Assembly: GCA_964406665.1 (NCBI GenBank)
Contig: CAYOSQ010000001.1
Location: 71,412 to 135,411, forward strand
Source: an uncultured Planctomycetia bacterium
Lineage (GTDB): Bacteria; Omnitrophota; Gorgyraeia; VGKH01; JBHPFN01
DNA: 64,000 bases
Reading direction: 5' to 3'
Shown: in pieces, positions 3,232 through 58,028 of the stretch
Layout: each line of letters opens with the position of its first letter
Position numbering within the stretch: position 1 is the first letter of the stretch
Notes under the pieces: model-generated
The model's database searches: none
What the model was told of the DNA's origin: nothing
The model's input: the letters and a program-made list of their open reading frames with translations, nothing else
Position numbers and translations under genes: made by a program

Positions 3232-3306
3232 TGGGCCCAAGAGGACTCGAACCTCTGACCTCCACGATGTCAACGTGGCGCTCTAACCAGGCTGAGCTAT
3301 GAGCCC
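3232..3306 (-). tRNA. tRNA-Val (anticodon GAC)
   Basis: Reverse complement gggctcatagctcagcctggttagagcgccacgttGACatcgtgg...ttcgagtcctcttgggccca folds as a cloverleaf with a 7-nt anticodon loop ttGACat. Confidence 0.85.
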
Positions 3307-3319
3307 GACAATTATTCAA

Positions 3320-3403
3320 TGGGCAAGGTGGGAGTCGAACCCACACGGCCTTGCGGCCAAAGGATTTTAAGTCCTTCGTGTATGCCATTCCACCACTTGC
3401 CCA
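3320..3403 (-). tRNA. tRNA-Leu (anticodon TAA), long variable arm
   Basis: Reverse complement gggcaagtggtggaatggcat...aaggacttaaaatcc...ggttcgactcccaccttgccca; anticodon loop ctTAAaa; type II tRNA. Confidence 0.8.
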
Positions 3404-3477
3404 ACAAAACAATTTTGCCCCTCGCGCTCTATTCTTTACCTATAAGTGCTCGGGACCAGATTTTGCTCTGCAAAATC

Positions 3478-3552
3478 TGGAGGCGCGGACCGGACTCGAA
3501 CCGGTGAATAATGGTTTTGCAGACCACCGCCTTACCGCTTGGCTACCGCGCC
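3478..3552 (-). tRNA. tRNA-Cys (anticodon GCA), CCA encoded
   Basis: Reverse complement ggcgcggtagccaagcggtaaggcggtggtctGCAaaaccat...ggttcgagtccggtccgcgcctcca. Confidence 0.8.
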
Positions 3553-8229: not shown

Positions 8230-8421
8230 TCAAGTGTTTTTTTCGTTTTTAAGCTGAACAGAGATCTTAGCCGGCTTAGCGCCTTTCATGCCAAAAAGCC
8301 CTTTTTGCTCCTCGGAAAGCACTTTAACCACAATTTCTTCTCTGGAAACCTTAAGTTCAGCTAGTGCCTTCTGAATGGCTTCTTCTACATTTGAGCCTTC
8401 AAATTCTAAAGGTTTATCCAT
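8230..8421 (-). CDS. Jag/KhpB N-terminal domain-only small protein (63 aa)
   Basis: Sits immediately after yidC where jag normally lies; EAIQKALAELKVSREEIVVKVLSE resembles Jag_N, but no KH or R3H domains follow. Confidence 0.45.
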   Translation of the reverse strand: MDKPLEFEGSNVEEAIQKALAELKVSREEIVVKVLSEEQKGLFGMKGAKPAKISVQLKNEKNT

Positions 8422-10003
8422 TAACCACCACTTTTGCTGCGCTCATTTTAAGCTGCGCAACAGTAGTTAAAATTGTATAGCAAAACCAATAAAGCGCTAA
8501 ACCGCTGGGGAAATGATAAAAAATAAACGCAAATAAAATAGGAAAAACAACGGCCATAATTCGCTGCTGCTCAGCAGCTTGTCCCGTAGCAACGTTATTT
8601 TTCATAGACATTTTTTGCTGGACAGCCATTGCAACAGCCATCAAAAGAGGCAACAAGTTAATGTCCGAGCCAATAACGGGAAATTCTCCAGATAGGACAA
8701 ATAAACGATCTGGCTCAGATAAATCTTTAATCCACAAGAAATTAGCGCCTTTCAATTGAATAGAGCGCATTAAAGTCTGGTAAAGCGAGAAGAAAACCGG
8801 CATCTGGAAAACAAGCGGCAAACAACCACCAAACGGATTAACCTTGTTTTTACGATAAAGCTCCATAACCTCTTTGTTCATTTTTTGAGGATTATCCTTA
8901 TGCTGGCTGCGTATTTGCTCCATTTCCGGTTGCAATGCTTGGAGTCGCTTCATAGAATTCAAGCTTTTGCTCGTAAACGGATAAAGGCAAGAGAAAATCA
9001 ACACGCTCAGCAAAATAATACAAACTCCCCAATTAGGCACAATTTTATGGATCCATCGCAAAATTGACATTAACGAAGTAACAATAGCATCTAGCTTACC
9101 AAAATATACTATTTCTGCAAAAGATTGATCCGCGCTAGAGAGCAACTCAACATCTTGAGGGCCAGCATAAAGCACAGCCTGTAAATTAGCCCAACTTTGA
9201 GGTGCGATTTCCATAACAGTTGGCCTTATGGATGAAATATATTGTCCAGAATCATTAACTTCTGCAGAAAAACCACTAACAGTAAACAATGGCTTAAAAA
9301 TAACGCAAAAATATTTACCGCGACTTCCAACCCATTGCAATGAAGAGGTTATTTCTAATCCCGATTTTTTACTTATACGAGTGTAATTTTTACGTAACAT
9401 CTTATCTGGTAAGGAGATAGACAATTCTATGAAATTCTTTTCGCGACCAGATAGCTTTGGCGATTCGGAATTCATATCTACTGAATGGCATAAAACAGGA
9501 GGGATTAATATGTTTTTTTCACTGCTCAAATTTTTTATCTTCAAACCTAACTCTATGCTATTATTTGACTTATTAACTGAAAATGTTTTTGTAATATCTA
9601 CTTTATCGTCGACATAAGTAAGCTCTGCCTTATTGTCAGATTGGACAAAAACAAATGGTGTACTCTCAAATCCTTCTAATCCAAAAATATTTTTTTGCAA
9701 AAGTAAACTATCATATTTCTTAATTCGTACTTCTTTTAAACTGCCACCAAGCTTTGAGAAAACAAGCTTCAGCTCAGGGGTGTCCATCTCATAAAGTTCA
9801 TCAGATAAAATCTCTGAATCCTGGTAAACAGGAGATGATGTTGCAGCGCTGACTGGGGCTAATTGCGCGCCAGAAGTAGTTTCTGCCGGTAAAATTTCGC
9901 TAACTTCTTTATCCACAGGCGGATACATCTTTGTGACAATCTTTTGATACGAAACAAGCACCAAAAAGCATAGTGCTAAAGCTAATATTGTTCTTTTTTC
10001 CAT
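8414..10003 (-). CDS. yidC: membrane protein insertase YidC
   Basis: NPFGGCLPLVFQMPVFFSLYQTL and a C-terminal 5-TM region; rpmH-yidD-yidC synteny. Confidence 0.9.
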   Translation of the reverse strand: MEKRTILALALCFLVLVSYQKIVTKMYPPVDKEVSEILPAETTSGAQLAPVSAATSSPVYQDSEILSDELYEMDTPELKLVFSKLGGSLKEVRIKKYDSLLLQKNIFGLEGFESTPFVFVQSDNKAELTYVDDKVDITKTFSVNKSNNSIELGLKIKNLSSEKNILIPPVLCHSVDMNSESPKLSGREKNFIELSISLPDKMLRKNYTRISKKSGLEITSSLQWVGSRGKYFCVIFKPLFTVSGFSAEVNDSGQYISSIRPTVMEIAPQSWANLQAVLYAGPQDVELLSSADQSFAEIVYFGKLDAIVTSLMSILRWIHKIVPNWGVCIILLSVLIFSCLYPFTSKSLNSMKRLQALQPEMEQIRSQHKDNPQKMNKEVMELYRKNKVNPFGGCLPLVFQMPVFFSLYQTLMRSIQLKGANFLWIKDLSEPDRLFVLSGEFPVIGSDINLLPLLMAVAMAVQQKMSMKNNVATGQAAEQQRIMAVVFPILFAFIFYHFPSGLALYWFCYTILTTVAQLKMSAAKVVVNG

Positions 10004-10006
10004 ATT

Positions 10007-10213
10007 TTATTCTACAGGATCGTAGCCTCCTTCAAATAATTGATTACATCTTGCAACCCTGGAAACACCTTTTATTGTTCCTTTGACAAAACCCCATCTG
10101 TCCAGCGAACTTAAAAAATATTCAGAGCAAGACGGATAATACCTACAACTATGTGGTAGTATAGGGCTGATACATTTCCGATAAAAATTTATGAGAAGCT
10201 TTAGTATTATCAT
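10007..10213 (-). CDS. yidD: membrane protein insertion efficiency factor YidD
   Basis: ISPILPHSCRYYPSCSEY signature. Confidence 0.85.
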   Translation of the reverse strand: MIILKLLINFYRKCISPILPHSCRYYPSCSEYFLSSLDRWGFVKGTIKGVSRVARCNQLFEGGYDPVE

Positions 10214-10221
10214 GGATAGTA

Positions 10222-10359
10222 TCAGACAGCTAGACGCGCGCGGCCTTTGCGACGTCGTCGTTTTAAAACTGCGCGGCCAGAAGCAGAGCGCATTTTCCGA
10301 CGGAAACCATGCGTGCGCTTACCTTTTTTCTTTGTAGGAGTAGTGAGTGTTTTCTTCAT
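10222..10359 (-). CDS. rpmH: 50S ribosomal protein L34
   Basis: Hand translation of the reverse strand gives MKKTLTTPTKKKGKRTHGFRRKMRSASGRAVLKRRRRKGRARLAV; not in the supplied ORF track because it is below the length cutoff. Confidence 0.85.
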   Translation of the reverse strand: MKKTLTTPTKKKGKRTHGFRRKMRSASGRAVLKRRRRKGRARLAV

Positions 10360-10631
10360 GGTTTCAGAATTATAACATAATGGCTGTTGAAGTCAAGTAA
10401 TTTTGGCAGATAAAAATCGCATTGCAAATATTGTTGTTATGAATAACTGTGTTTTATTTTTTTGCATAGATCTGTTTTGGCAAAAATTTTTCATAGCGGT
10501 TTTTTTCACCTAAATAATTTCCTTTTGAGAATTAATAGCTATCAAAAAATGAAGAGAAAAATTTCCTTGAAAAATGTTTTTTCTTTGTTATAATGGTAAC
10601 ACTTAATTACAAAACTGGCTGTGCATAACTT

Positions 10632-10640
10632 GTGAATAAT
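10632..10640 (-). promoter_or_regulatory. DnaA-box-like 9-mer (TTATTCACA on the minus strand) in the rpmH-dnaA intergenic region
   Basis: Matches TTATNCACA; the same 9-mer recurs at 12093..12101. Confidence 0.3.
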
Positions 10641-10714
10641 GTTAATAACCGATTTTCAGTTATAGTGTGTTTACGAATTGCATGTGTTTCTCGCCGAGAA
10701 AATAGAAAGTTGCC

Positions 10715-12061
10715 GTGGAATTAAAAGAATTAAAAACTTATTGGGAACAAGCTCAGGGCTTTATTAAAGATCATGTTGGCCAAGCTGCGTATGAGACTTG
10801 GTTCTCTTCAATCCAGGCCGTACCCGCAAGCCCTGACCAAATCTTCCTTGAGATGCCTGATGACTTTTTCAAAGAGTGGGTGGTTGAACACTATGAAAAA
10901 ATCATACAGGAGTCGCTTAATAATGTTTCCGCTGAGGTCATCAAACTTGCTTTTAGGGTTAATCCTGATGTGATAAAAAAAGATGCTGTTGTTAAAGAAG
11001 TATCTCTCACACCAAGATACCCAATTCAAAACAGAAGACCTGCAGCTAACTTAAATCCGCGTTTTTCTTTTGATAGTTTTGTTGTGGGGCCCAGCAATCG
11101 CTTTACCCATGCTGCCTGTCAAGCCGTGGCTGAATCGCCTGCGAAAGCTTACAATCCGCTATTTATCTACGGTAAAGTAGGCTTGGGCAAAACTCATCTT
11201 ATGCAGGCAGTGGTACAAAAAATACGACAAGGCAAACCCGACTTGACGAGCTGTTATATAACTTCTGAACGCTTTACAAACGAACTTATAAACGCGATTC
11301 AACACCACTCAACCGAAAAATTCCGTCATAAATATAGGGAAATCGATATCCTACTTATTGATGATATCCAATTTATCGCCGGGAAGGAAGCCACACAAGA
11401 AGAATTTTTTCATACTTTTAACGCACTATATGACAACCATAACCAAATCGTGCTTTCTTCTGATAGGCCGCCTAAAGAAATTCAACACATGGAAGAAAGG
11501 CTTGTTTCTCGGTTCGCCTGGGGGCTTATAACTGACATACAACCACCGGATTACGAAACCCGTGTAGCCATTCTAAGGAAAAAAATTGAGAGAGAGCCCG
11601 TTAAGGCTCCTGATGATGTTATAGAATTTATTGCTCAACAAATTCAATCTAATATTCGCGAACTAGAGGGTGCACTTATTCGCGTGGTGGCATACTCGTT
11701 GTTGGAGGAAAAAGAAATTTGTTTAAGTATGGCTCAGGACGTTCTTAAAGATCTAGTGCGAGAAACCAGGGTGAATATCTCGGTTGAGGTTATTCAAAAA
11801 AAGGTGGCGGAAACATTTAATATCTCCATAAATGAACTTAAAGCAAAAAAGAGGAATAAAAACATTGTATTACCTAGGCAAATTGCTATGTTTCTATCTA
11901 GAGAACTTACAAATCTATCTTTGCCGGAAATCGGCGAGTCTTTTGGTGGTAAAGACCACACAACAATTTTACATGCCTGGAATAAAATACAAAGGGTCAT
12001 CAAAGAAGATCGAGACCTAAAATCAACGGTTGATAGAATTGTTCAAGGGTTTAAACAATAA
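10715..12061 (+). CDS. dnaA: chromosomal replication initiator DnaA (GTG start)
   Basis: AAA+ Walker A GKVGLGKTHL, box VII, and a C-terminal DNA-binding domain. Confidence 0.95.
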   Translation: MELKELKTYWEQAQGFIKDHVGQAAYETWFSSIQAVPASPDQIFLEMPDDFFKEWVVEHYEKIIQESLNNVSAEVIKLAFRVNPDVIKKDAVVKEVSLTPRYPIQNRRPAANLNPRFSFDSFVVGPSNRFTHAACQAVAESPAKAYNPLFIYGKVGLGKTHLMQAVVQKIRQGKPDLTSCYITSERFTNELINAIQHHSTEKFRHKYREIDILLIDDIQFIAGKEATQEEFFHTFNALYDNHNQIVLSSDRPPKEIQHMEERLVSRFAWGLITDIQPPDYETRVAILRKKIEREPVKAPDDVIEFIAQQIQSNIRELEGALIRVVAYSLLEEKEICLSMAQDVLKDLVRETRVNISVEVIQKKVAETFNISINELKAKKRNKNIVLPRQIAMFLSRELTNLSLPEIGESFGGKDHTTILHAWNKIQRVIKEDRDLKSTVDRIVQGFKQ

Positions 12062-18658: not shown

Positions 18659-18733
18659 GACCCCATCGTCTAGTCTGGTCTAGGACACAAGCTTTTCAAG
18701 CTTGCGACCGGGGTTCAAATCCCCGTGGGGTCG
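18659..18733 (+). tRNA. tRNA-Glu (anticodon TTC)
   Basis: gaccccatcgtctagtctggtctaggacacaagcttTTCaagcttg...ggttcaaatccccgtggggtcg; anticodon loop ttTTCaa. Confidence 0.8.
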
Positions 18734-19093: not shown

Positions 19094-20509
19094 ATGGAAA
19101 GAAAGCCAAAAATCATATCTAAACACTCTTCAAAAGCATACCTATTATTTTTAATGGTCATAGGGGTTTGTTTTCTTTCTGCCAATACCTGCTTTGCTGC
19201 TTTCACTTTAAACGCTACTCCTTATGAAGGTGGATTCGACTTACGTTTTGGTTCTGTTGCAGGTGGGGCAAAGGCAAATAAGGAAGTTTCTATTAGCGTA
19301 ACAAGCGATATTGCAAAACAATATCGTGTAATTCAAACTTTTGCTCCTCTTACCAACTCAAAAGGTACAAAGCTGCCAACAAATTCTGTGAGAGTATATA
19401 CATTAAGAGGTTCTAATGCGGCAGGTACTTTGGGCTATGATGTTGAAAGCCCAATTTTTTTAGGCCCGATGGTTCTTTATACTTCTGCAAGCGCTGGCCG
19501 CAGCGATTCTTTTGTTGCAGTTTATTCTGTTGATGTGCCGGCAGATCAGGATCCTGGGCTGTATCGTGGCAGATTGATTTATAGTCTGGAGCCGATTGGA
19601 GCAGCTAACCAGGCACCAGTTATTAAAACACTAAATATATCTGTTGAAGTTGGATCATCTGCACAGCTTAAGGTCGAGACAATAACCGGCGGGAAGACAG
19701 TTATTTTAAAAACTTCCGCAAGTCAACAGGATTTATCACGAGACGTACGCATACAAGTAACTGGTTCTCTGGGCAATCGTTATCGTATTGTACAAAAACT
19801 GTCTAGGCCGATTACTAGTGCAACAGGAAAACAAATTGCCAAAGAGGGTGTATCTCTTTATGCACAAGGTGGAGAAAAAGGACAGCTTGGTATAAAAAAA
19901 CTCAGCTCTTTACCTGCAACGAATGTTATTTTATATACTTCTGACGAGCGCGGCAGCGCCGATGAAATCATTTTAACTTTTGCTTTGAATGATATCGATC
20001 AAGACGCCGGGATTTACCGTGGTGCATTAACATATACGATTGAAAGCTCTGTTCCTGTTAAGGGTGCAGGCATGACACAGATGTTGCCAATAGAAATTGA
20101 GGTGACTCCGTTGTTTAATCTTGTTGTTACAACAGATCATTCGGGCAGCATCGTTTTTAGAGATTTAAAACCGAACCAGCCTCCCAAGACAAGCGTATCT
20201 TATGTTGAGATCAAAACTAATTCTGATAAACCATATCAGGTAATGCAGACGGTTTCTGGTCTTTTAACTACCAAGGAAGGTAAAACAATTCCTGCGGGAT
20301 TTTTTAAATTGAAAACAACATCTGAAGAAAACAAAGATGGAATTAAATATCCTAAAGAGGCTGCTGTAGAGGATGGACAAATGGTTTTATTTACGTCGCG
20401 AGACGGAAAATCTGCGAAGCTGAAAGTTATTTATAAACTGGACATACCAAGAGACATCCATTCCGGTAACTATTCTACCGGAATTATATATTCTTTATTA
20501 GAGATGTAG
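19094..20509 (+). CDS. secreted protein with three tandem SCPU-like (spore coat U / Csu-type pilin-like) domains
   Basis: Signal peptide; three roughly 140-aa repeats each containing an xxYRVIQT-like motif and ending G(L/I)YRG.L.Y(S/T)(L/I)E. Confidence 0.45.
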   Translation: MERKPKIISKHSSKAYLLFLMVIGVCFLSANTCFAAFTLNATPYEGGFDLRFGSVAGGAKANKEVSISVTSDIAKQYRVIQTFAPLTNSKGTKLPTNSVRVYTLRGSNAAGTLGYDVESPIFLGPMVLYTSASAGRSDSFVAVYSVDVPADQDPGLYRGRLIYSLEPIGAANQAPVIKTLNISVEVGSSAQLKVETITGGKTVILKTSASQQDLSRDVRIQVTGSLGNRYRIVQKLSRPITSATGKQIAKEGVSLYAQGGEKGQLGIKKLSSLPATNVILYTSDERGSADEIILTFALNDIDQDAGIYRGALTYTIESSVPVKGAGMTQMLPIEIEVTPLFNLVVTTDHSGSIVFRDLKPNQPPKTSVSYVEIKTNSDKPYQVMQTVSGLLTTKEGKTIPAGFFKLKTTSEENKDGIKYPKEAAVEDGQMVLFTSRDGKSAKLKVIYKLDIPRDIHSGNYSTGIIYSLLEM

Positions 20510-20550
20510 ATGCCTTATTGTAAATCTGACAACGAGGAGGGGAATTACAA

Positions 20551-21171
20551 ATGATTAGAAAAGCAACCATTGCATTGCTAGCGGTATTGTTTTTAGGCAT
20601 GAGTTCAATGTGCTATGCCGACAATATTGTGAACGTAGATGTCAACGCTCAGATCCCCGATATGCTGGAGTTGAGTTCATGGATTAAGTATTTTATGGAC
20701 GAAAACCAAACTCCATTAGGTGATGCTGAAAGCTTTGACTTTGAGACACTGACACATACCCTAGAAGGAGGAGGAGAGGCCGGCGTATGGTTTTCGAGGA
20801 AATGGTTTACCATTTATCTCGTTGCTAATACTGGTGGCAGACGCTATCAGCTTAAGCAAACCTGTACTGGTGTAACCTCTGGTGGCAACGACATCAACAG
20901 CGCATTCGTTGTTACGCCTAATTATTCAGAATATGATGAATTAGGTGGTGTACCACAGGGTCCGATTCCTGGAACAATAGGTGTTCCAAATTTGGCTGTA
21001 TCAACAGACCATGTCCTTTATACAAGTGACACTGGTGGTTTAGCTCGTATAATCCAGGGTATTTACGCTATTCCTAACGAGAGCGAAGTAACTGGATATG
21101 AATCAATTAGTTTTGATACTCCACAGGGTGTTTACGGTGGTGAGGTAGTTCTTACAGCGGTGCTGTATTAA
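20551..21171 (+). CDS. secreted single-domain SCPU-like putative pilus subunit
   Basis: Signal peptide; RRYQLKQT and C-terminal GVYGGEVVLTAVLY, homologous to the repeats in the upstream gene. Confidence 0.4.
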   Translation: MIRKATIALLAVLFLGMSSMCYADNIVNVDVNAQIPDMLELSSWIKYFMDENQTPLGDAESFDFETLTHTLEGGGEAGVWFSRKWFTIYLVANTGGRRYQLKQTCTGVTSGGNDINSAFVVTPNYSEYDELGGVPQGPIPGTIGVPNLAVSTDHVLYTSDTGGLARIIQGIYAIPNESEVTGYESISFDTPQGVYGGEVVLTAVLY

Positions 21172-21176
21172 TATAT

Positions 21177-21360
21177 AGTTAAGGGGAAACAGTTGACCTC
21201 TTGCACAGCGCAGATCTTGTCTTTATAAGCTGCGATAGGCAAAACTTGTTGCCAGCTGAATAATAAATTCAAGAGAAAGCTTGTCATAATCTTTGATTGT
21301 TTGGTATAATATCATATAATATTTATCAAAGATTAAAAGGGGTCTGTGTTTCCCCTTAAC
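21177..21360. repeat. 15-bp perfect inverted repeats (agttaaggggaaaca / tgtttccccttaact) flanking a 154-bp segment that carries a TTGTCA-18-TATAAT promoter
   Basis: IR-L 21177..21191 and IR-R 21346..21360, visible in the sequence. Confidence 0.5.
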
Positions 21361-21391
21361 TATTATAAAGCACTAATTTATAAGGAGGCAA

Positions 21392-22237
21392 ATGAACATA
21401 AGGCATTTGTTGATGAAGAGAATCTGTCTATGGTTTTTAATTTGTGCTGCTTTGTGCTTGTTTGGTGTAGTTTATAATGCTGATGCAAGCACAGTCCGCC
21501 TGCAAAGACCAAAGGTTAGATTGAGCATTCCCTCCGGAAGTACTGAAAGCGGTTCAATTACAGTAGCTAATCCCTCGGATAAGAACGTAAATGTTAAAGC
21601 GTATCTCGAAGACTGGATATATACAGCCACACAAGATGGAATTAAAGATTTTGCTCCGCCAGGGACAACTCCTTTGTCGTGTGCGAAATGGATCAGCTTT
21701 TATCCTGCCGAATTTACTCTGCCGCCGTTTGGGTCTAGGGAAATATTTTTCGTGGTTAAAGTTCCCAAGGCAGTAGACGGTGGACATTATGCAGTATTAT
21801 TTTTTGAAACCGTTGTGGGATCAACTGTAGATGCTACCGGAGTCAATATTTTAATTAAAGGGCGCATTGGGTCATTATTTTATATAGAGGCAGGGGGCGT
21901 ACAAAAAGAAGCAACCATTACAGATATTTCTATTGCTAAAGCAGGTAAGGAAACTGCAATAGAAGCAGTTTTAAATAATATTGGCAACGTTGATATAACC
22001 GCCAACGGTTCTTTCAATATCATCGACAGCAAGGGCATGGTTTTTGCAAGAGGTAAGTTTAATGAGGTTTACACTTTTCCTGGAGATAAGGCGACCATAG
22101 CATCTGCTTGGTCTGCGAAAATTCCTGCAGGAGAGTATGATTTAATAATAACGTTGGACTTAGGCAATAAACCTTTAATATACGAAGCAAAGATTAATGT
22201 AAATGCTGCTGGCGAGGTACGCTATGTTGCCCCTTAA
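21392..22237 (+). CDS. PapD-like periplasmic pilus chaperone-like protein
   Basis: Signal peptide; VRLSIPSGSTESGSITVANPSDKNVNVKAYLEDW, ISFYPAEFTLPPFGSREIFFVV and VNILIKGRIGSLFYIE resemble the N-domain strands of chaperone-usher chaperones. Confidence 0.4.
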   Translation: MNIRHLLMKRICLWFLICAALCLFGVVYNADASTVRLQRPKVRLSIPSGSTESGSITVANPSDKNVNVKAYLEDWIYTATQDGIKDFAPPGTTPLSCAKWISFYPAEFTLPPFGSREIFFVVKVPKAVDGGHYAVLFFETVVGSTVDATGVNILIKGRIGSLFYIEAGGVQKEATITDISIAKAGKETAIEAVLNNIGNVDITANGSFNIIDSKGMVFARGKFNEVYTFPGDKATIASAWSAKIPAGEYDLIITLDLGNKPLIYEAKINVNAAGEVRYVAP

Positions 22238-22258
22238 GAATAGAAAAAAAAGGAGTTT

Positions 22259-25200
22259 ATGCGTAGCTGTAAAAACAGTCAGAGTATTTGTTTAAAAACA
22301 ATCATCGCAAGATGTATTCTTGCGATTCTTACATTGTCCTTTTTTTCTGCAAGCCTTCTTTTTCTCTCCAGCAGCCCAGCTTACTCTGAAGACCTTTCTG
22401 ATTTCCTCTGTGAATTAGCCACCAAATATTATGAGCGCGGAGATTATCCTAACGCGTTACACGAATTCAAAAAAGCTTTAATGATCAATCCCCATAATCG
22501 CACTGCGCAAAAATACATTGCAATTATCAGCGATCTAGAAGAAGTTGTTGTTGAGCCATCACCTTATCTGCCCATCGAAAGCATTCCTCAGGAATACAGA
22601 GACAAAGCTATTAAAAATGCACTGGATAGTTTTGATGAGGTTATTTTTGTAAAAGAGCCATATATCCAAGAAGAAACAGAATCTCAACCACCATTAATTA
22701 TTATTGATTCAGATGACGAACAAACTTTTCCTCAAGAAGAGCTGGATAAGTTTGATGAGGTCAGGGTCTCTAGAGAGCAGACTATTTTGGAAGATGTTCC
22801 TAAAGAACCCTCGATAGTAATATCTCCTGTGCAGGATAGGGAGATTATTGTTCGAAGTGCGCTCGATGAATTCGAAGCACGGTATGGGGCGGAAGATATT
22901 GTAGATATTGTGCCAGAGCCAGAAGAGATTGTTGAGGAAGAGCCCGAACACGAAGAAGCTATTTATTATCCTATCGAACCAGAGGAAGAATTTCCAGAGG
23001 AATTTGTTTCTACATCTTATGTTGAACCTTCCACAGACATAGAAAAGCCAAAGGGTTTTAAGCGTCTTTATCTTAATGTAGAAGTTAGGGCTTCGCAGCC
23101 ACAAACACAAATAAGTTTACAAATAGACAGAGATTTAATAATTATTGGAAGTAATATTGCTAGGTTTCTTGTGATTAATCCTGAAATTTTAGAGATTGTT
23201 AGATTGCGTCCCGACGAGATAAAGCTTGTGGCTAAGAAAATTGGAAGTACTTACGTGCATATCTGGGATGATGAAGGCCGGTGGACTTTTATCGTTCAAG
23301 TGTCACCGTTTCGCTCTGGCAGGCCGACACTTGCCGAGCTATATCGTCAGCAAGCCGAAGAGGCTGGTTCGTTAAAATTCCATTATTATAATGAATGGCG
23401 TTCGTTTTATTCTGGAAGAAGAGCGGATAACCTAACAAGGGATTCTCTTACTCTATATCAAAGCTTGGGTCTTGATATGCAGACTCCTTATGGAGATGTT
23501 GATGGCCGCGTTCAATTAAACAGGCTAAATGAAGAAAGCGAGCTCTCATTTTATACTTTAGGATTAACCGATGGCATGGTAGGTCCGTTTAAGAATTTTG
23601 ATCTACGTGCTTTAGATTATTATATAGATTTTGATAATATTTCTTTTGGTGGTGCGAGCTTGCGCGGTGTGAGGTTAGATGCAGAAGCATTTAATGAAAA
23701 AGTGGATTATACGGTTTTCTGGGGCAAAGAGAAAAGTGGGGCATTTGGTCCACTTGCTCCGGGGCTTGAGGGTTCAAACAAGTCATATCTTAAAGGTATA
23801 AATTTTGGATTCAACTCTCCGGAAAACCTTTATCAGACGCTTTCCTATTTCGCCGGATATGGTTCTGATAGGAGTTCTTTGTTGTTCCAAGATGCCTATG
23901 ATTATACGGGCGAGCTTAACTTAGGCGATACAAAATTATTTACCAACGTCGGACACGATGGCTATTCTCTGGCTTATATGCTAAGAGGTGTATATACCGT
24001 TCCTAAGCTTCAGTTAGCCGGCGAGTTTAGAAATATTGACGATGATTTTTATAGCATAACCGGCAGACCTTATGCATCAGGAGAAGTTGGTGGTTTGGTG
24101 AGCTATCGCTATGCCCCTTCCAGAGATCTAGATATCTCAGGACGCCTGAATGTTTATAGGGACACCTTGTTTCCTAACCCTCAACACAAAGAAAGATATA
24201 ATGCGGATTTCGATACTGCCATACGCTATACCATTAATCCTAGTACATCTATGAGGTTAGATTATTATAATGTTCATGATACCGGCACTATATCGCCGCA
24301 TAAAGATGAGTCTGTAGGATTATCCTTGTACAAAACAATTGATTTCATTAGGCCGCTTAGTACGTTTGTAAACTTAAGACATCAATCTAGTAAAAATCCT
24401 AGTTCGACAACTCTGGACTATAAAAATGAAAAAGCTGGCTTTGGCGTAAGAGTTGGCTTAACCGATACGCTTAATTATTATATCTCCAAGGAATTCAATT
24501 GGCTGGAGGATTATGCCGGAGATGTAGAAAAACCGCATGTTTTTGAGACGGGGCTTGATTATAATACCCAAATTCTCGACAGCCCGTTTTATATAACCTC
24601 TAGGCTTTATTTCCGGGATGAAGAAAATGCTGCTTCAACAAGAAGTTTCTTGGCTGGTGAAGATAATTTAGAAGGACAGGCTGAATTAAGGTATACCCCC
24701 AACGAAGATTTTAATTGCTACGCAAATCTACGAGTTAATAACTACTGGGCGGAAAACGCCGATACTACCAAGCGCACAGAAGCAGAGATTCGTTTCGGTA
24801 CACAATGGACTTTTGATACCGGCTTGAAATGGAATCCCATAGGTAGCATAACAGGCATTGTTTTTAAAGACTTGAATTCAGATGGCAAGCGTCAAGCGGA
24901 CGAGATTGTTATGAAGGATATTAAAATTTTCTTAGGAAGAGAAAAATTTGATATAACCGATGAAGAAGGAGCGTATATCTTTAAAAATATCCGTGCTCGC
25001 AAAGCCTTTGTTTACTTAGATACTAATACGCTACCAGCTGGATATGTGCCGACGGAAGAGAAATCCCAAGAGATAACAATTCAAAACGGCAAACTTATAA
25101 ATGTTGATTTTGGTGTTATAGCGCGTTCCGAAATATATGGTATTGTGTTTAAAGACTTAAATAGCAACGGAGAATTTGATGCTCAAGACGAAGGCGTGAG

Positions 25201-25420
25201 AGATGCTGTTCTATCTTTAGAAGATGGTTTAACAACCTCTACGAATGCAAGAGGTCAGTTTTATTTAAGAGAAGTTGCTCCTGGAAAACACACTCTTACC
25301 CTAGACATAAATAGCCTACCTATTAATCTTATTCCTTTGGTGCCGTTATTTAAAGAGATAGAGGTGTTTGAGGGAATTACCTATGTGCACAATATTCCTT
25401 TGAAAGAAACACAAGACTAA
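22259..25420 (+). CDS. large outer-membrane/cell-surface protein: N-terminal TPR, acidic linker, pilus-assembly (CpaC/secretin-N-like) domain, beta-rich Y/G/D/N region, and two C-terminal Cna-B/SdrD-B-like domains; putative usher-like component
   Basis: Motifs LQIDRDLIIIGSNIARFLVINPEILEIVRLRPDEIKLVAKKIGSTYVHIWDDEG; duplicated GIVFKDLNS(D/N)G...D modules at the C-terminus. Confidence 0.45.
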   Translation: MRSCKNSQSICLKTIIARCILAILTLSFFSASLLFLSSSPAYSEDLSDFLCELATKYYERGDYPNALHEFKKALMINPHNRTAQKYIAIISDLEEVVVEPSPYLPIESIPQEYRDKAIKNALDSFDEVIFVKEPYIQEETESQPPLIIIDSDDEQTFPQEELDKFDEVRVSREQTILEDVPKEPSIVISPVQDREIIVRSALDEFEARYGAEDIVDIVPEPEEIVEEEPEHEEAIYYPIEPEEEFPEEFVSTSYVEPSTDIEKPKGFKRLYLNVEVRASQPQTQISLQIDRDLIIIGSNIARFLVINPEILEIVRLRPDEIKLVAKKIGSTYVHIWDDEGRWTFIVQVSPFRSGRPTLAELYRQQAEEAGSLKFHYYNEWRSFYSGRRADNLTRDSLTLYQSLGLDMQTPYGDVDGRVQLNRLNEESELSFYTLGLTDGMVGPFKNFDLRALDYYIDFDNISFGGASLRGVRLDAEAFNEKVDYTVFWGKEKSGAFGPLAPGLEGSNKSYLKGINFGFNSPENLYQTLSYFAGYGSDRSSLLFQDAYDYTGELNLGDTKLFTNVGHDGYSLAYMLRGVYTVPKLQLAGEFRNIDDDFYSITGRPYASGEVGGLVSYRYAPSRDLDISGRLNVYRDTLFPNPQHKERYNADFDTAIRYTINPSTSMRLDYYNVHDTGTISPHKDESVGLSLYKTIDFIRPLSTFVNLRHQSSKNPSSTTLDYKNEKAGFGVRVGLTDTLNYYISKEFNWLEDYAGDVEKPHVFETGLDYNTQILDSPFYITSRLYFRDEENAASTRSFLAGEDNLEGQAELRYTPNEDFNCYANLRVNNYWAENADTTKRTEAEIRFGTQWTFDTGLKWNPIGSITGIVFKDLNSDGKRQADEIVMKDIKIFLGREKFDITDEEGAYIFKNIRARKAFVYLDTNTLPAGYVPTEEKSQEITIQNGKLINVDFGVIARSEIYGIVFKDLNSNGEFDAQDEGVRDAVLSLEDGLTTSTNARGQFYLREVAPGKHTLTLDINSLPINLIPLVPLFKEIEVFEGITYVHNIPLKETQD

Positions 25421-25471: not shown

Positions 25472-25726
25472 TTATCTTTCATAAAAGCTGTACAATTTAG
25501 CTTCTGTTAAGCGCTCTTCCTGAACACACAGCCTTTTTGTAGTATCTCGAATTTCAGCTTTAGCAGCTTCGATTTCACTTTGTTCTGTGTCCATCTCTAG
25601 CAATGCAGGGATTCTTGCAGAAACAGAAACTCGAGCAGTATTACCTGCCTCTACCGCGCTAGCCATCAAAGCGCAACCCAGCAAAATAATAACTAAAACG
25701 TTTGTAATAATCATTGTCTTTTTCAT
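25472..25726 (-). CDS. small secreted hypothetical protein (start at MKKTMII, preceded by GGAGGTG)
   Basis: Signal peptide followed by a charged helical region; the gene downstream of the tandem riboswitch candidates. Confidence 0.5.
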   Translation of the reverse strand: MKKTMIITNVLVIILLGCALMASAVEAGNTARVSVSARIPALLEMDTEQSEIEAAKAEIRDTTKRLCVQEERLTEAKLYSFYER

Positions 25727-25754
25727 CGGTACCACCTCCATAAATTTTCAAAAA

Positions 25755-25812: not shown

Positions 25813-25905
25813 CTACGGCAACCCGACAACCATAAAGACAGCCGATGTCTTTTTAGGCTCAAGGCTTTGTGCCCTACTCTTTCGAAGTAGTTTACTTTTA
25901 AGGAT
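25813..25905 (-). ncRNA. candidate c-di-GMP-I (GEMM) riboswitch aptamer, copy 2 (proximal to the CDS)
   Basis: Minus-strand RNA GUAAACUACUUCGAAAGAGUAGGGCACAAAGCCUUGAGCCUAAAAAGACAUCGGCUGUCUUUAUGGUUGUCGGGUUGCC matches the recalled GEMM-I consensus (GCAAACC, GAAA-capped P1, GGACGCAAAGCC, GGGUUACC-like 3' end). Confidence 0.55.
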
Positions 25906-25929
25906 TTGAAAGAACGTTGCTTCCAACAA

Positions 25930-25960
25930 AAAACCCTAGAATTTTTCTAGGGTTGCTACT
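25930..25960 (-). terminator. intrinsic terminator (expression platform of riboswitch 1)
   Basis: Minus strand ccctagaaaaattctaggg followed by TTTTTTGTTGG. Confidence 0.55.
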
Positions 25961-25961
25961 T

Positions 25962-26042
25962 TTGGCAACCCTGCCGCCTTCCCCCTTTCGGGAATAAGGC
26001 CGTTGGTTTTGCGTCCTTAGATTTCTCTAAGTTTGCCTTTTT
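25962..26042 (-). ncRNA. candidate c-di-GMP-I (GEMM) riboswitch aptamer, copy 1 (distal)
   Basis: Minus-strand RNA GCAAACUUAGAGAAAUCUAAGGACGCAAAACCAACGGCCUUAUUCCCGAAAGGGGGAAGGCGGCAGGGUUGCC; P1 CUUAGA-GAAA-UCUAAG with the GACGCAAAACC core. Confidence 0.5.
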
Positions 26043-26237
26043 CAAAAGCTAATATACTCTATAGAAACTATAGCACACAAAAAGCGCTTTTTCAAGTTGG
26101 CCAGGTAAATTTCTGAAAATTTTTAAACATCCTATTATGACATTTAAGCGTAACCGCTGAATTAGCTTTACTTTAGGTTTCTGCTATGATAGAATAGCAT
26201 TCACATTCAACAATATTTTTTAATCAAAAAACAAAAA

Positions 26238-29016: not shown

Positions 29017-30342
29017 ATGAGGTCAAGAGGATTTTCTTTACAAGAAGTTCTGATTACTATTGTTTTAGTTCTTGTTTTAGGTGGGGCAGCGTTTAAAGCA
29101 CTTGTTGTTGGCCAAAACACATTTTTTTCTAGCTCTGCTCTGCTAGACTTGCAGCAACATGCTCGTGAAGGCATAGATAGAATGACAGATGAATTACGAC
29201 ACAGCGCATCGGGAAAAGTTACAATTTATCAATGTCCTTCAGAAGTATGTGAGGGTGGCGCTATAGCATTTCAGGTTCCTGTAGTTACGGATGATCCTAT
29301 AGCTGGAAGCACATTTAAACCAACCGGCTTTGGTGCCGCACAGAAAAAGTGGGGGTTTGATGGAAGGGAAAGTTCTTCACCAATTATTTATTTGGCTCCT
29401 GCTGCCGGCGGTGCTTTGTCTCAATATAGTGGTAAATTAATTAGATTAACATCCAAAGATCAATATTGTGGAAATGGTATCTGTGAGACCGGAGAAACAA
29501 TAGCTTGTTGTCCTGATTGTAGTTTTGTTTCTGGTGATGGAGTATGTTGTTCTAATTTAGGAGAACGCTCTTGGAATTCTAGCGATTGCGGGGCTTGTTT
29601 TCTTAAAGAGACGCCCATACAGATGGCAGATGGAACTTCAAAAAATATTGAAGATATAAAAATTGGTGATATGGTATTATCTTTTGATGAGCAGGAAAAG
29701 AAGTTAGTGGCTGACGAAGTAAAAAACGTTGCTAAACAAAAAGCAGATAATTATATTATAATAAATGGCCATTTAAGGGTTACACCCAATCATCCGTTTT
29801 ATAGTAATGGTCGATGGATGCCCATAGGAGATCTACAAGTAGGAGATGTTATTTTTACTTCACAAGCCAAAGAAGAGCTTATTACGGAAATTGTAAAAGT
29901 TGAAGATACTGTTGAAGTATATGATATAGAAGTTAATCCATATCATAATTATTTTGCCGGAGGCTATCTAGTGCACAATAAGGAGGTATTGCCAGAAATA
30001 CCACCAGTTATGGAAGGTGGCGGTTCGTTTGAAATACCTGGCGGGCGCAGTTGGCTAGGGCCTCGTTTGTTTCTAGGCATAGCCTTTGCTCAGGAAGTTT
30101 CTCCTTTAGCACCAAATATAGATATGTATGATACATTGCCTGCGCTTGACAGTATATCTAATTATGATATTAAGATTCTTGCAGAAGACGTTAGAGGGGT
30201 TTATTTTCTTGGTACGCCCCTTCCGCCGGATAAGCCAAACACCGTAACAGTATTTGTGGATATGTATAAAGAGATTTTTGGCGGCGGTGACGTGCAGACA
30301 CATTTATCAACAGAGATGAAGTTAAGAAATCTTAGTTTGTAA
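29017..30342 (+). CDS. type IV pilin-like protein (class III signal peptide RG|FSLQE) with a Cys-rich module and an embedded Hint/BIL domain (about nt 29596..29979)
   Basis: N-terminal MRSRGFSLQEVLITIVLVLVL; Hint blocks CFLKETPIQMADGTSKNIEDIKIGDMVLS, TPNHPFY and VYDIEVNPYHNYFAGGYLVHN. Confidence 0.6.
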   Translation: MRSRGFSLQEVLITIVLVLVLGGAAFKALVVGQNTFFSSSALLDLQQHAREGIDRMTDELRHSASGKVTIYQCPSEVCEGGAIAFQVPVVTDDPIAGSTFKPTGFGAAQKKWGFDGRESSSPIIYLAPAAGGALSQYSGKLIRLTSKDQYCGNGICETGETIACCPDCSFVSGDGVCCSNLGERSWNSSDCGACFLKETPIQMADGTSKNIEDIKIGDMVLSFDEQEKKLVADEVKNVAKQKADNYIIINGHLRVTPNHPFYSNGRWMPIGDLQVGDVIFTSQAKEELITEIVKVEDTVEVYDIEVNPYHNYFAGGYLVHNKEVLPEIPPVMEGGGSFEIPGGRSWLGPRLFLGIAFAQEVSPLAPNIDMYDTLPALDSISNYDIKILAEDVRGVYFLGTPLPPDKPNTVTVFVDMYKEIFGGGDVQTHLSTEMKLRNLSL

Positions 30343-33246: not shown

Positions 33247-33317
33247 TTCTACAAATACCTTTAAGCTGGTACTGTGAGACTGGCAAGGACAAGACATGAA
33301 AACAAAAAAACAACATT

Positions 33318-33350
33318 CAATAATGACCTCGAAAAACAATCGAGGTATTT
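33318..33350 (+). terminator. pyr leader attenuator terminator (putative PyrR-controlled)
   Basis: acctcg-aaaaacaat-cgaggt hairpin followed by ATTTTTTTG, 25 nt before the pyrR start. Confidence 0.5.
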
Positions 33351-33374
33351 TTTTGTCCACGAAAAACTAAAATA

Positions 33375-34845: not shown

Positions 34846-36122
34846 ATATTTTAATTAAAAACGGAAATATTATTGATCCCGCAAACAATACTAATGAGAC
34901 GCTGGATATTTTAATAAAAGACTCTAAGATATTTAAGCTGGATAAAAATATTCAGGCGAAAGCAGATGAGGTGATAGACGCTAAGGATAAAAAGGTAATT
35001 CCTGGTTTAGTAGATATGCATGTGCATCTTAGAGAGCCGGGAAGAGAAGATCAAGAAACCATAGCCAGTGGTACTTCGGCAGCAGTAAAAGGTGGCGTTA
35101 CTTCTGTATTGGCAATGCCCAATACCGGGATTCCTGTTGATTCTATTGATGTTGTCAAGCTGGTTAAAGGTATTATCAAGAAAGATGCTAAAGCAAATGT
35201 TTTGATTGCAGGTGCGATTACTAAAGGGCGTTTAGGCAGAAAGTTAACTGATGTTGAGCAGCTTGTCGAAGAAGGCGCAATTGCAATTACTGACGATGGT
35301 TCTTCAGTAGATGATGAGAATATTTTCTCACAGGCCTTAAAGAAAGCTAAGACAGCAAAGTTGCTAACAATTTGTCACAGTGAAGATTCTCTGCTTGCAA
35401 AAAAAGGCGTTGTAAATTTAGGCCTAGTTTCTACAATTCTTGGTTTAAGAGGCGTATCAGCAGAATCAGAATATAAAAGAATTGAAAGAGATATTGCCTT
35501 AGCTGTAAAAGCTAAGGCCAAAATTCATATAGCACACGTTAGCTGTAAAGAATCTGTAGGCGTGATTGCCAAAGCGAAAAAGAAAGGTATTAATGTAACT
35601 GCAGAAACCGCCCCTCACTATTTCTCTTTATATGACGAGCTACTTTTTGATTACAATACCGATATGAAAATAAACCCGCCGCTACGCAGCAAAGCAGATG
35701 TAGAAGCGATAAAACAAGGGTTGTGCAGTGGAGCTATAGACTGTATAGCATCAGACCATGCACCACATACAGTTGCAGAAAAAGACCGTGTGTTTGATTT
35801 AGCTCCCTTCGGAACGATTGGCCTGGAGACTGCTTTGGCAGTTGCGATTACAGAGTTGATTGATAAAGATGTTTTAAGTTGGCTTGAGCTGGTTAAAAAA
35901 ATGTCTTTAAATCCCGCAAGGATACTTAAAACAAAAAAAGGCAATCTTACTCAAGGATCAGATGCGGATATTGCAATAATTGATCCGAAAAAAGAATGGG
36001 TAGTGTCTGTGGATAATTTTGTATCTAAGTCGCACAACTCTGCTTTTCTTGGAAGGAAGCTAAAGGGAGTAGTTGAGTACACTGTTGTCGGAGGAAAAAT
36101 CGCATATAAAAACCAAAAATAA
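34842..36122 (+). CDS. pyrC: dihydroorotase
   Basis: VDMHVHLREPG metal-binding motif and amidohydrolase fold. Confidence 0.85.
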   Translation: MNILIKNGNIIDPANNTNETLDILIKDSKIFKLDKNIQAKADEVIDAKDKKVIPGLVDMHVHLREPGREDQETIASGTSAAVKGGVTSVLAMPNTGIPVDSIDVVKLVKGIIKKDAKANVLIAGAITKGRLGRKLTDVEQLVEEGAIAITDDGSSVDDENIFSQALKKAKTAKLLTICHSEDSLLAKKGVVNLGLVSTILGLRGVSAESEYKRIERDIALAVKAKAKIHIAHVSCKESVGVIAKAKKKGINVTAETAPHYFSLYDELLFDYNTDMKINPPLRSKADVEAIKQGLCSGAIDCIASDHAPHTVAEKDRVFDLAPFGTIGLETALAVAITELIDKDVLSWLELVKKMSLNPARILKTKKGNLTQGSDADIAIIDPKKEWVVSVDNFVSKSHNSAFLGRKLKGVVEYTVVGGKIAYKNQK

Positions 36123-36259
36123 GATGTCCGTAAATGCAAATATCGGTTTTTTCAAAAAAGGGTCCGGTCAAGCCGGACGTTACTTTATATTGACCAATGT
36201 AAATAAATCAATTAAACTATTATTTATCAAACACGCCAAAATATTTATAGGATAACAAT

Positions 36260-38021: not shown

Positions 38022-38423
38022 ATGAAAAGCATTAATATTAAAACTGGTTTTCAAACAGAACTAATAGATATAACAGGTAAGGTTCAGCGCGTAATCGATG
38101 CACAAAAAAATAAAGACGGAGTTTGCTTAGTGTTTATTCCGCATACAACTGCTGGTATTACCATTAATGAAAATGCCGATCCGTCAGTACAAAAAGATAT
38201 TTTGAAAGAATTGAATAAAGTAATTCCTTTTAATGATAATTATTCTCATGCAGAAGGGAATTCTGCGGCTCATATCAAAGCTTCTCTTCTAGGCTCGTCA
38301 GTAAATATTATTATTGAGAACGGTCAGCTGAAGCTAGGTACCTGGCAGGGGATTTATTTTGCTGAATTCGACGGACCCAGAAATCGAGAGGTTTGGATAG
38401 ATGTTTACGGAGGTAAGGGATAA
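38022..38423 (+). CDS. yjbQ: YjbQ/UPF0047 family protein (secondary thiamine-phosphate synthase enzyme)
   Basis: HTTAGITINENADPSVQKD...GTWQGIYFAEFDGPR motifs. Confidence 0.65.
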   Translation: MKSINIKTGFQTELIDITGKVQRVIDAQKNKDGVCLVFIPHTTAGITINENADPSVQKDILKELNKVIPFNDNYSHAEGNSAAHIKASLLGSSVNIIIENGQLKLGTWQGIYFAEFDGPRNREVWIDVYGGKG

Positions 38424-50377: not shown

Positions 50378-50514
50378 AAGTAGGCAGGGGGTGGGCTTAA
50401 GGGGATATCCACATAGTTAGACCGAAGGTCGTCAAGAAACCGCTTTCTTGAAACACTACATTTACTCTTTTCTTTGTAGAATTAGATGTTATTCTTTTAG
50501 TAATAGACAGATAA

Positions 50515-50650
50515 AGGTAAACCATCAGAGATGGTGGGACGCAAAGCCACGGGTCTAGGAAGGGTCAGCCTAGATTAATATAAAGTCTTTTTGAAGAATA
50601 TCTTAGGCAATTATCCTTTATTTAGATAGCCGGGTTACCAAAAGGTGGTT
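50515..50650 (+). ncRNA. candidate c-di-GMP-I (GEMM) riboswitch aptamer, copy 3
   Basis: GGUAAACCAUCAGAGAUGGUGGGACGCAAAGCCACGGGUCUAGG...AGCCGGGUUACC; an 11-bp GU-containing stem gccggguuacc-aaaa-ggugguucggc followed by a U-rich tract, then the AAGGAGAG SD and ATG at 50683. Confidence 0.45.
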
Positions 50651-54937: not shown

Positions 54938-55011
54938 GGGCGATTAGCTCAGTTGGTTAGAGCATCTGACTTACATTCAGAGGGTCGAGGGTTCGAGTCC
55001 TTCATCGCCCA
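54938..55011 (+). tRNA. tRNA-Val (anticodon TAC)
   Basis: gggcgattagctcagttggttagagcatctgactTACattcagagggtcgagggttcgagtccttcatcgccca. Confidence 0.85.
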
Positions 55012-55120
55012 TTAAGATTTTGCGAAGCAAAACTAGTCCTGAGCTTTTGTTGGATTAATTGTTTGAAGCGAGGGACCAGGATAAAAAATCTGTTCTTTGT
55101 AACATAGGGTAATTTTCTAA

Positions 55121-55195
55121 GGGCCCGTGGTGTAGCTTGGTTAACATGTCAGATTGTCGATCTGAAGATCGCGAGTTCAAATCTCGTCGGGCCCG
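55121..55195 (+). tRNA. tRNA-Asp (anticodon GTC)
   Basis: gggcccgtggtgtagcttggttaacatgtcagattGTCgatctga...gagttcaaatctcgtcgggcccg. Confidence 0.85.
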
Positions 55196-55295: not shown

Positions 55296-55408
55296 CTCTT
55301 TCGATGTGAAACTTTTTTTATAATTTTGTTGTCTAAGGCAATGAAAGGAGGTGGGTAGAAAACTTGAAGGGTTACAAAAAGACTTATAAAAAGAGGAGGA
55401 TAAGAATT

Positions 55409-55798
55409 ATGAAAAAAATAATTACAGTTTTTATGATTGGTTTAATATCTTTGGCTGGTGTGGTAATCTTTTTGACCCCTGGCTATGCGAGCGATTGGGA
55501 TACAGCAGGAAAGATATTTGCAGGTATTGAAGGAATGAGAGTGCTCTCAGGTGGCAACATAGATATTATTGGCAGCATGACAGGGATAAACAGACATAAA
55601 GGACATTCACATACAAGTTATGCTAAATGCCATCCGCACTGTTCGCATAGGGTGTGGGTTCCTAAAATGGTTTGGAAGAAAAAATACGTTCCGCAACATA
55701 AAGAATACAGCGAAAAATATGGTGAAATCATAGTAGAAAGCCATTACATCAAATATCAGGTTGAACGGGGAGGAAAATGGATTTACGCATGTAAATGA
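55409..55798 (+). CDS. hypothetical secreted His/Cys-rich small protein (start trimmed to MKKIITVF after AAGAGGAGGA)
   Basis: Signal peptide/TM; HKGHSHTSYAKCHPHCSH cluster; no family recognised. Confidence 0.35.
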   Translation: MKKIITVFMIGLISLAGVVIFLTPGYASDWDTAGKIFAGIEGMRVLSGGNIDIIGSMTGINRHKGHSHTSYAKCHPHCSHRVWVPKMVWKKKYVPQHKEYSEKYGEIIVESHYIKYQVERGGKWIYACK

Positions 55799-57605: not shown

Positions 57606-58028
57606 ATGGCAGAAGTATTAACAGAAAATATTCGTATATCTACAGAAGGCAATACCGACATTGTGGATATTTCAGATTTAGTTCAGAAAAAACTGAGCTC
57701 AGTAAAATTTAAAAATGGTATTGTTAATATTTCTGTTGCAGGTTCTACTGCATCAATTACAACTTGTGAATATGAACCTGGCGTTATATCGGACCTGAAG
57801 CAAATATATGAAAAACTTATTCCTGAAAATAAGCAGTATAATCATAATTTTGCTTGGAAAGACGGCAATGCACATTCTCATTTAAGAGCTGCTCTTACGG
57901 GTCCGAGTGCTTCTATTTCATTTCAGGATGGTGAGCTTTGCCTGGGGACTTGGCAACAGATAGTTCTTCTAGATTTTGATAATCGGCCTCGCCAGAGAAA
58001 TATTATGCTTCAGTTTATCGGTAAATAA
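57606..58028 (+). CDS. second YjbQ/UPF0047 family protein
   Basis: GTWQQIVLLDFDNRPRQRN resembles GTWQGIYFAEFDGPRNRE of the paralog at 38022. Confidence 0.6.
   Translation: MAEVLTENIRISTEGNTDIVDISDLVQKKLSSVKFKNGIVNISVAGSTASITTCEYEPGVISDLKQIYEKLIPENKQYNHNFAWKDGNAHSHLRAALTGPSASISFQDGELCLGTWQQIVLLDFDNRPRQRNIMLQFIGK

Follow-up and report, generated by a model that had tools for sequence, protein, structure and literature searches.

Gene order at the rpmH locus

The rpmH-yidD-yidC operon was analysed in a 64,000-nucleotide stretch of DNA from an uncultured bacterium (contig CAYOSQ010000001.1, positions 71,412 to 135,411 of the forward strand). The whole stretch is called the window here and is numbered from its first letter. 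The gene rnpA, which encodes the protein of RNase P and usually lies between rpmH and yidD, was missing. The features of the locus were as follows, with protein lengths in amino acids (aa) and spacers in nucleotides (nt).

8230-8421, minus strand: jag remnant, 63 aa, with the Jag_N domain alone and without KH or R3H (PF14804, E = 1.3e-19)
8414-10003, minus strand: yidC, membrane insertase, 529 aa, with a diderm-type periplasmic domain (PF02096, E = 7.9e-55; PF14849, E = 2.8e-17)
10007-10213, minus strand: yidD, membrane protein insertion efficiency factor, 68 aa (PF01809, E = 2.2e-26; TIGR00278, 69.7 bits against a cutoff of 40)
10214-10221, minus strand: rpmH-yidD spacer of 8 nt, TACTATCC, read directly from the sequence, at the usual position of rnpA
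10222-10359, minus strand: rpmH, ribosomal protein L34, 45 aa, first gene of the operon (PF00468, E = 4.8e-14; TIGR01030, 46.8 bits against a cutoff of 37.65)
10360-10714, no strand: rpmH-dnaA intergenic region, probable oriC and divergent promoter region, marked by a sign change of the guanine-cytosine (GC) skew
10369-10396, minus strand: putative sigma-70-like promoter, near-consensus TTGACT, 16 nt spacer and TATAAT, with TG (11 of 12 consensus matches)
10715-12061, plus strand: dnaA, the divergent neighbour that anchors the locus as the canonical origin-proximal rpmH operon (Pfam DnaA_N, Bac_DnaA and Bac_DnaA_C)

The plus strand carried dnaA, dnaN, dciA, gyrB and gyrA in this order from 10715, and the sign of the GC skew flipped at about 10.4 kb. 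The locus was therefore identified as the classical origin-proximal rpmH operon, with rpmH, yidD, yidC and jag in the canonical order beside dnaA. Downstream on the minus strand, yidC was followed by the Jag_N-only gene and then by parA and parB. The PF00825 RnpA gene that stands directly after rpmH in the canonical operon was absent. A preliminary description of this DNA had placed the rpmH stop and the yidD start 8 nt apart, and direct reading gave the same distance between the stop codon (TGA, 10224-10222) and the ATG (10213-10211). Its further claim that no rnpA lies between the two genes also held, with no RnpA match and no overlapping open reading frame (ORF) at the junction and the same arrangement in replicate assemblies.

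A hidden rnpA was considered, as in Thermus, where an overlap with rpmH makes rnpA appear to be missing after that gene. No minus-strand ORF of at least 30 aa other than rpmH and yidD overlapped positions 10007-10359 in any minus-strand frame. A Thermus-style overlapped rnpA was ruled out because no such alternative-frame ORF runs across either gene here. Loss of rnpA through misassembly or a frameshift is a negligible alternative, refuted by the agreement of independent JGI and ENA assemblies. Contigs of the window organism from both sources encoded an identical YidC, and L34, wherever it was called in them, lay about 220 nt upstream of yidC, leaving room for yidD only. Such an artefact would also have to recur in 13 other lineages, described below, which include NCBI-annotated metagenome-assembled genomes (MAGs). 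The two genes are moreover no more than 8 nt apart.

Distribution of the junction

The Genome Taxonomy Database (GTDB) was scanned with one genome per species. Eighty loci were fetched around yidC, of which 76 were informative, and rnpA was detected with a profile built from 60 RnpAs found in the fetched loci. The gene lay between rpmH and yidD or yidC in 64 of the 76 informative loci, as expected from the preliminary description, which had called this its usual place. The order rpmH-rnpA-yidD-yidC was retained in 60 loci of other phyla and in sister classes of Omnitrophota. The 12 loci that lacked rnpA came from Omnitrophota (10), Thermodesulfovibrionales (1, locus L056) and Brevinematales (1, where rpmH was not close to yidC).

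In the ten Omnitrophota loci rpmH was directly followed by yidD, with stop and start codons often abutting or overlapping, or in L007 by yidC. Three further loci, from Aceula lacicola, A. meridiana and the organism encoding protein P0114, were obtained by exact protein look-up and had the window's gene order together with the rnpA-less junction. In A. meridiana position 9776 is both the end of the called L34 gene and the start of the called YidD gene. The junction is accordingly shared by the window and 13 other Omnitrophota lineages (L007-L014, L017, L030 and the three obtained by look-up).

In a tree of YidC, the window and the ten rnpA-less GTDB loci formed one clade, sister to rnpA-containing Omnitrophota (L015, L018, L019 and L020). 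The best YidC matches were 36-46% identical to the window protein. The source-named matches among the best 120 were all from Omnitrophota, apart from one labelled 'bacterium'. Class assignments were taken from a genome survey (Seymour et al., 2023; PMC10066038). Zapsychrus unditaenarius (L007) and Aceula (L179 and L183) are placed there in Velamenicoccia, and rnpA was absent at their loci; Taenaricola (L018) and Makaraimicrobium (L019) are placed in Gorgyraia and L020 in class 2-02-FULL-51-18, and rnpA was present at all three. By the YidC tree alone, L008-L014, L017 and L030 would also belong to Velamenicoccia. The window organism is taken to be a marine bacterium of Velamenicoccia, within GTDB Koll11.

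The lack of rnpA is genuine, clean and ancient, a mark of the class Velamenicoccia. It is an old class-wide trait, seen in all relatives of the class that were sampled, and not a local synteny break of one genome. The simplest reading would be a single clean excision in the ancestor of the class, and the clean removal of one internal gene from an operon looks more like loss than relocation.

Search for RNase P components

The sequence examined comprised the window and 10 kb on each side, about 84 kb in total. With a probable genome size of 1.5-2 Mb, from the sizes tabulated by Seymour and co-workers (2023; PMC10066038), this amounts to roughly 5% of the genome. Pfam scans of about 50 window ORFs found no RnpA and no PIN_5 protein. 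Six-frame searches of the window and flanks with three RnpA queries and the RnpA profile found no RnpA once a chance match had been set aside. That match (36073-36252, E = 0.007 in a small database) was intergenic, had no start codon before residue 18 and lacked the RNR motif. RNase P RNA (RF00010/RF00011) was not found at the gathering score in the window or flanks, nor at E values up to 5 in the window.

Among the relatives, no RnpA was found in the Velamenicoccia sequences examined, which were origin-region loci, and no RNase P RNA in 127 kb of their loci. Small unannotated ORFs near tRNA genes (55364-55798 in the window and a 176-aa ORF in locus L090) were inspected and had signal peptides or membrane segments; they were neither RnpA nor HARP, the protein-only RNase P family of Aquifex. 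A literature search found no mention of RNase P in Omnitrophota.

HARP in the class and in related metagenomes

HARP was searched with a query identical in sequence to PDB 7F3E. The family is small, with 197 proteins at E values up to 0.001 in an exhaustive search of 1.84 billion cluster representatives. Only Aquificaceae were among the best 120 matches listed for the Aquifex HARP query, and the source-named matches to a HARP profile were all from Nitrospirota. Three of 20 HARP cluster representatives carried an organism name, and one of these was from Omnitrophota. This protein (P0256, OQX80046.1) is the HARP of Omnitrophica bacterium 4484_70.1 and is 43% identical to Aq_880. The 4484_70.1 MAG is listed in the survey cited above under Velamenicoccia, order Duberdicusellales (PMC10066038). 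The HARP contig has 35.6% GC and carries AsnC, aminotransferase and small TPR genes that are 51-63% identical to those of the window organism's right flank, with their order kept. By this synteny the contig is genuinely related to the window organism.

A metagenome scan with the HARP profile listed 600 matches, and the counts drawn from these are lower bounds. Among the matches listed, at least about 22 loci carried a HARP 57-67% identical to P0256, against 50-56% for Thermodesulfovibrionia-type HARPs. In a tree, at least 21 of these formed a clade that encloses the 4484_70.1 HARP and stands apart from the Thermodesulfovibrionia-type and Aquificae branches. The contigs of this low-GC clade have 30-48% GC and came, judged by sample series, from Antarctic lakes, groundwater, sediments and peat. 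Examples of low-GC contigs with a HARP are Ga0222626_1000005 (215 kb), Ga0182021_10000100 (75,640 bp) and Ga0265342_10000012 (206 kb), the HARP of the last branching just beside the clade. Diderm genes surround the HARP gene: secretin, RcpC/CpaB and two SurA-like genes upstream and divergent, and often a CNNM/CorC pair downstream.

The acidic metal-binding residues of the PIN_5 active site (D7, D138, D142, D144 and D160 in Aq880 numbering) were invariant in an alignment of 90 HARP sequences. P0256 and the two clade members scored, from loci L110 and L100, reached 183-191 bits against TIGR03875 (cutoff 95.3), and that of L110 scored 182.5 bits against PF08745 (cutoff 27). By these curated cutoffs and the conserved aspartates, P0256 and the proteins of the low-GC clade are assigned to the HARP family, and cleavage of pre-tRNA leaders is predicted for them.

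The annotated neighbours of low-GC-clade HARPs included no identified RNA ligase gene, unlike those of most bacterial HARP loci described; in the Integrated Microbial Genomes (IMG) survey, about 80% of the bacterial HARPs that co-occur with an RNA ligase have the ligase within 5 kb. The lack of an identified Rnl3 ligase gene among these neighbours also separates the clade from the Aquificaceae.

Three side observations concern these sequences. The HARP loci with recurring neighbours were L097-L117 from metagenomes, and also L137 and L141. The window holds two YjbQ/UPF0047 paralogues (38022-38423 and 57606-58028, both on the plus strand), the second of which is 53% identical to the YjbQ beside AsnC on the 4484_70.1 HARP contig. 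A 388-aa JGI protein, P0405, reached 503 bits with the HARP profile, roughly double the score of a normal HARP, and may be a tandem-duplicated or fused double HARP.

Comparison with known HARP systems

Genera with HARP only have been reported in Aquificae, Nitrospirae and some unclassified bacteria (Daniels et al., 2019). The Aquificaceae, among them Aquifex aeolicus (HARP Aq_880), have HARP only and have lost both rnpA and rnpB. The likeness to the window lies in the absence of rnpA after rpmH and in the presence of a PF08745/TIGR03875 HARP in the window's class. The Aquificaceae are hyperthermophilic, whereas the present lineage is mesophilic or psychrophilic.

A second comparison is with Thermodesulfovibrionia, a class of Nitrospirota in which some genera are reported to be HARP-only. 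An rpmH-yidD-yidC operon without rnpA was found there in the GTDB locus L056 and in four metagenomic loci (L127, L129, L130 and L142), the latter assigned to Thermodesulfovibrionia by HARP type alone. In these four a HARP gene lies 1.7-2.4 kb past yidC, whereas the same region of the window organism holds jagN, parA, parB and ndk. The Thermodesulfovibrionia-type HARPs form a separate clade from those of the low-GC contigs, and the YidC tree makes the loss of rnpA independent. In the four metagenomic loci the HARP gene is convergent to the rnpA-less operon, so that the replacement enzyme is encoded beside the site of the loss.

Dual-RNase P bacteria offer a third comparison. Thermodesulfatator indicus, for example, is reported to have a HARP beside functional rnpA and rnpB (PMC9945441). 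Velamenicoccia would resemble it if the lineage keeps the RNA enzyme beside a HARP; they differ from it in having no rnpA at the canonical position.

Source of RNase P activity

The tRNA genes of the window were as follows, with the nucleotide that precedes the mature 5' end given as position -1.

3232-3552, minus strand: cluster of tRNA-Cys, tRNA-Leu and tRNA-Val, with U, U and C at -1, respectively
18659-18733, plus strand: tRNA-Glu, with C(-1) facing G73, which may extend the acceptor stem by a G-C pair
54938-55195, plus strand: pair of tRNA-Val and tRNA-Asp, with A at -1 in both

The tRNA-Leu and tRNA-Val genes of the first cluster are 13 nt apart. Because this leaves no room for separate promoters, endonucleolytic 5' processing, the activity of RNase P, would still be needed.

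We favour the reading that a HARP encoded elsewhere in the genome supplies RNase P, with a probability of about 0.45. After the clean excision of rnpA, which the simplest reading sets in the ancestor of Velamenicoccia, the operon now runs from L34 straight into YidD, probably with translational coupling. On the favoured reading, the activity that the tandem tRNA genes still require would come from HARP, a PIN_5 metallonuclease of roughly 190 aa that acts as a homo-oligomer, in a repeat of the replacement seen in Aquificaceae and some Nitrospirota. This reading is favoured because the loss is class-wide and clean, a member of the class has a HARP, that HARP belongs to a larger clade, and an rnpA-less junction with an adjacent HARP provides a precedent. 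A HARP had been one of three options left open by the preliminary description. It has gained from the HARP on a syntenic contig of the same class and from the HARPs beside rnpA-less junctions elsewhere, and lost from the lack of one in the 84 kb examined here. The comparison with Aquifex drawn in that description is apt in kind and does not extend to the tRNA leader signature.

Several observations weigh against a HARP as the provider. Six-frame searches with two HARP sequences and the HARP profile found no HARP (PF08745/TIGR03875) in the 84 kb, whereas in Aquificaceae the HARP is known; nor was any found in about 130 kb of relatives' loci. The low-GC HARP clade is tied to Omnitrophota by a single anchor, 4484_70.1, a MAG with an estimated contamination of 23% in the survey's entry for it (PMC10066038). 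The HARP of this MAG lies just past the TPR gene, beside a transposase fragment where all assemblies break, and the matching site in the window organism holds a peptidase M48 gene and no HARP. Tetranucleotide correlations of 0.93-0.96 between the HARP contigs and Velamenicoccia loci are compatible with common origin and not discriminating; such similarity is weak evidence because it is driven largely by GC. By sample identifiers the HARP contigs and Velamenicoccia loci co-occur, for example in sample Ga0222637. No HARP contig among the 600 matches listed came from samples holding the window organism, which was not counted as a negative result. The IMG survey reported 178 HARP-positive bacterial genomes and no Omnitrophota, with unclear coverage of such MAGs. 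Most bacterial genera with HARP also keep RnpA (Daniels et al., 2019).

The tRNA leaders point in the same direction. Aquifex, which has HARP only, carries A at -1 in 38 of 44 tRNA genes and no G-C pair at that place, and HARPs process G-C-extended stems poorly (Davydov et al., 2025; PMC12439589). At -1 the window's six tRNA genes carry C, U, U, C, A and A, and they do not show the A(-1) bias of the Aquifex-type HARP leader. Across 24 tRNA genes of rnpA-less lineages the nucleotide was U in 12, A in 5, C in 5 and G in 2, and a C(-1):G73 pair occurred in 1 of the 24, the window's tRNA-Glu. These 24 genes are not an independent sample because they are largely orthologous Cys, Leu and Val genes.

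An RNA-based RNase P may instead have been retained, with rnpA moved or diverged beyond recognition and any HARP accessory; the junction would then be an ancient synteny break only. The RNA-based bacterial enzyme prefers U at -1, which fits the U found in half of the 24 genes, and the C(-1):G73 pair of tRNA-Glu is of the kind that HARPs handle badly. The coexistence of HARP and RnpA in most HARP-bearing bacterial genera speaks for this alternative too, as does the divergence that RnpA already shows in other Omnitrophota classes (E = 1.8e-08 in L020 and 1.4e-14 in L019 with the 60-RnpA profile). The view is moreover limited to about 84 kb here and to the origin region alone in each relative. 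Set against this are the lack of any RnpA in the Velamenicoccia sequences examined and of RNase P RNA in the 84 kb or in the relatives' 127 kb, and the cleanness of an excision that left yidD with rpmH. The same junction also goes with an adjacent HARP in the Thermodesulfovibrionia-type loci. There the tRNA-Leu genes beside the HARP carry U or A at -1, and for this reason A(-1), a feature described for Aquifex only, is not a general marker of HARP use and the leader test is weakly calibrated. Retention of the RNA enzyme is thus a serious but somewhat doubtful alternative to replacement by HARP.

It is also conceivable, though improbable, that neither RnpA nor HARP is used. The organism, and perhaps much of Velamenicoccia, would then have an RNase P RNA without protein or with an unrelated cofactor, or an undescribed leader-removing enzyme. 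The 84 kb yielded none of the three known components, no HARP occupies the place that corresponds by synteny to the HARP site of 4484_70.1, and the one HARP tied to the class, next to a transposase fragment, could be lineage-specific. The argument is one from absence in roughly 5% of a 1.5-2 Mb genome, however, and a known replacement, HARP, exists in the class. We know of no bacterium that has rnpB without rnpA.

To our knowledge, RnpA is treated as a universal bacterial gene, and the only accepted exceptions are thermophiles that have switched to HARP (Aquificaceae and a few Nitrospirota). If the operon has lost rnpA throughout Velamenicoccia, the exception would extend beyond thermophiles. 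Members of this class are ultra-small and occur worldwide in groundwater, lakes, sediments and oxygen-poor seawater, none of these an extreme habitat, and they made up about half of the Omnitrophota genomes tabulated in the 2023 survey (Seymour et al.; PMC10066038). That the non-thermophilic Velamenicoccia rely on HARP alone would be new, and we advance it tentatively, at slightly less than even odds. Should the replacement by HARP hold, the class would join the HARP-dependent bacteria and be notable among them as both non-thermophilic and class-wide. The case would also touch on why an RNA enzyme is ever replaced by a protein, which is an open question; an argument from heat would not hold for organisms of Antarctic lakes. 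The low-GC HARP clade has a gene neighbourhood of its own, with no RNA ligase identified alongside, and supplies concrete proteins for testing. If an ordinary rnpA sits elsewhere in the genome, what remains of the finding is a synteny marker of phylogenetic use for the class.

Other features of the operon and window

The TTGACT/TATAAT site upstream of rpmH was given its putative promoter role from the consensus match alone. It ends 9 nt ahead of the rpmH ATG, and no Shine-Dalgarno sequence was evident. Because the site is so close to the ATG, the leader of the rpmH mRNA may be very short or absent, making the transcript leaderless or nearly so. At the other end of the operon, the 63-aa Jag protein covered only positions 3-58 of the Jag/EloR model, which has 203 positions, and its score of 57.6 bits fell short of the cutoff of 145. 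A short Jag of 63-66 aa, consisting of the 50-residue N-terminal domain and lacking the RNA-binding KH and R3H domains, is common to the rnpA-less relatives L007-L014, L179 and L183.

Two tandem c-di-GMP-I riboswitch aptamers (25814-26047 and 25472-25741, both on the minus strand; 78 and 63 bits) lie upstream of a short ORF (89 aa) whose N-terminus resembles a signal peptide, with no larger gene downstream on the same strand. A third aptamer of c-di-GMP-I type (50506-50642, plus strand) lies directly upstream of a gene for a 1349-aa protein (50683-54732, plus strand) that combines a thermolysin-like M4 peptidase domain with FG-GAP and ASPIC/UnbV domains. This arrangement suggests c-di-GMP control of a large secreted protease.

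Four consecutive genes for signal-peptide proteins occupy 19094-25420 on the plus strand. Three of the products (471, 206 and 281 aa) had no Pfam match, and the last (1053 aa) has a pilus-formation N-terminal domain and SdrD_B repeats; the cluster may encode an uncharacterised surface-fibre or secretion system. Residues 190-320 of a 441-aa protein (29017-30342, plus strand) form a Hint/intein-like domain (PT-HINT, Intein_splicing and Vint); no host-protein domain could be recognised in it. A match to the PyrR-binding site (33254-33356, plus strand) stays below threshold, at 30.9 bits where the gathering score is 54. Its place, immediately upstream of genes for a PyrR-like phosphoribosyltransferase and pyrB/pyrC, would fit PyrR attenuation of the pyr operon.

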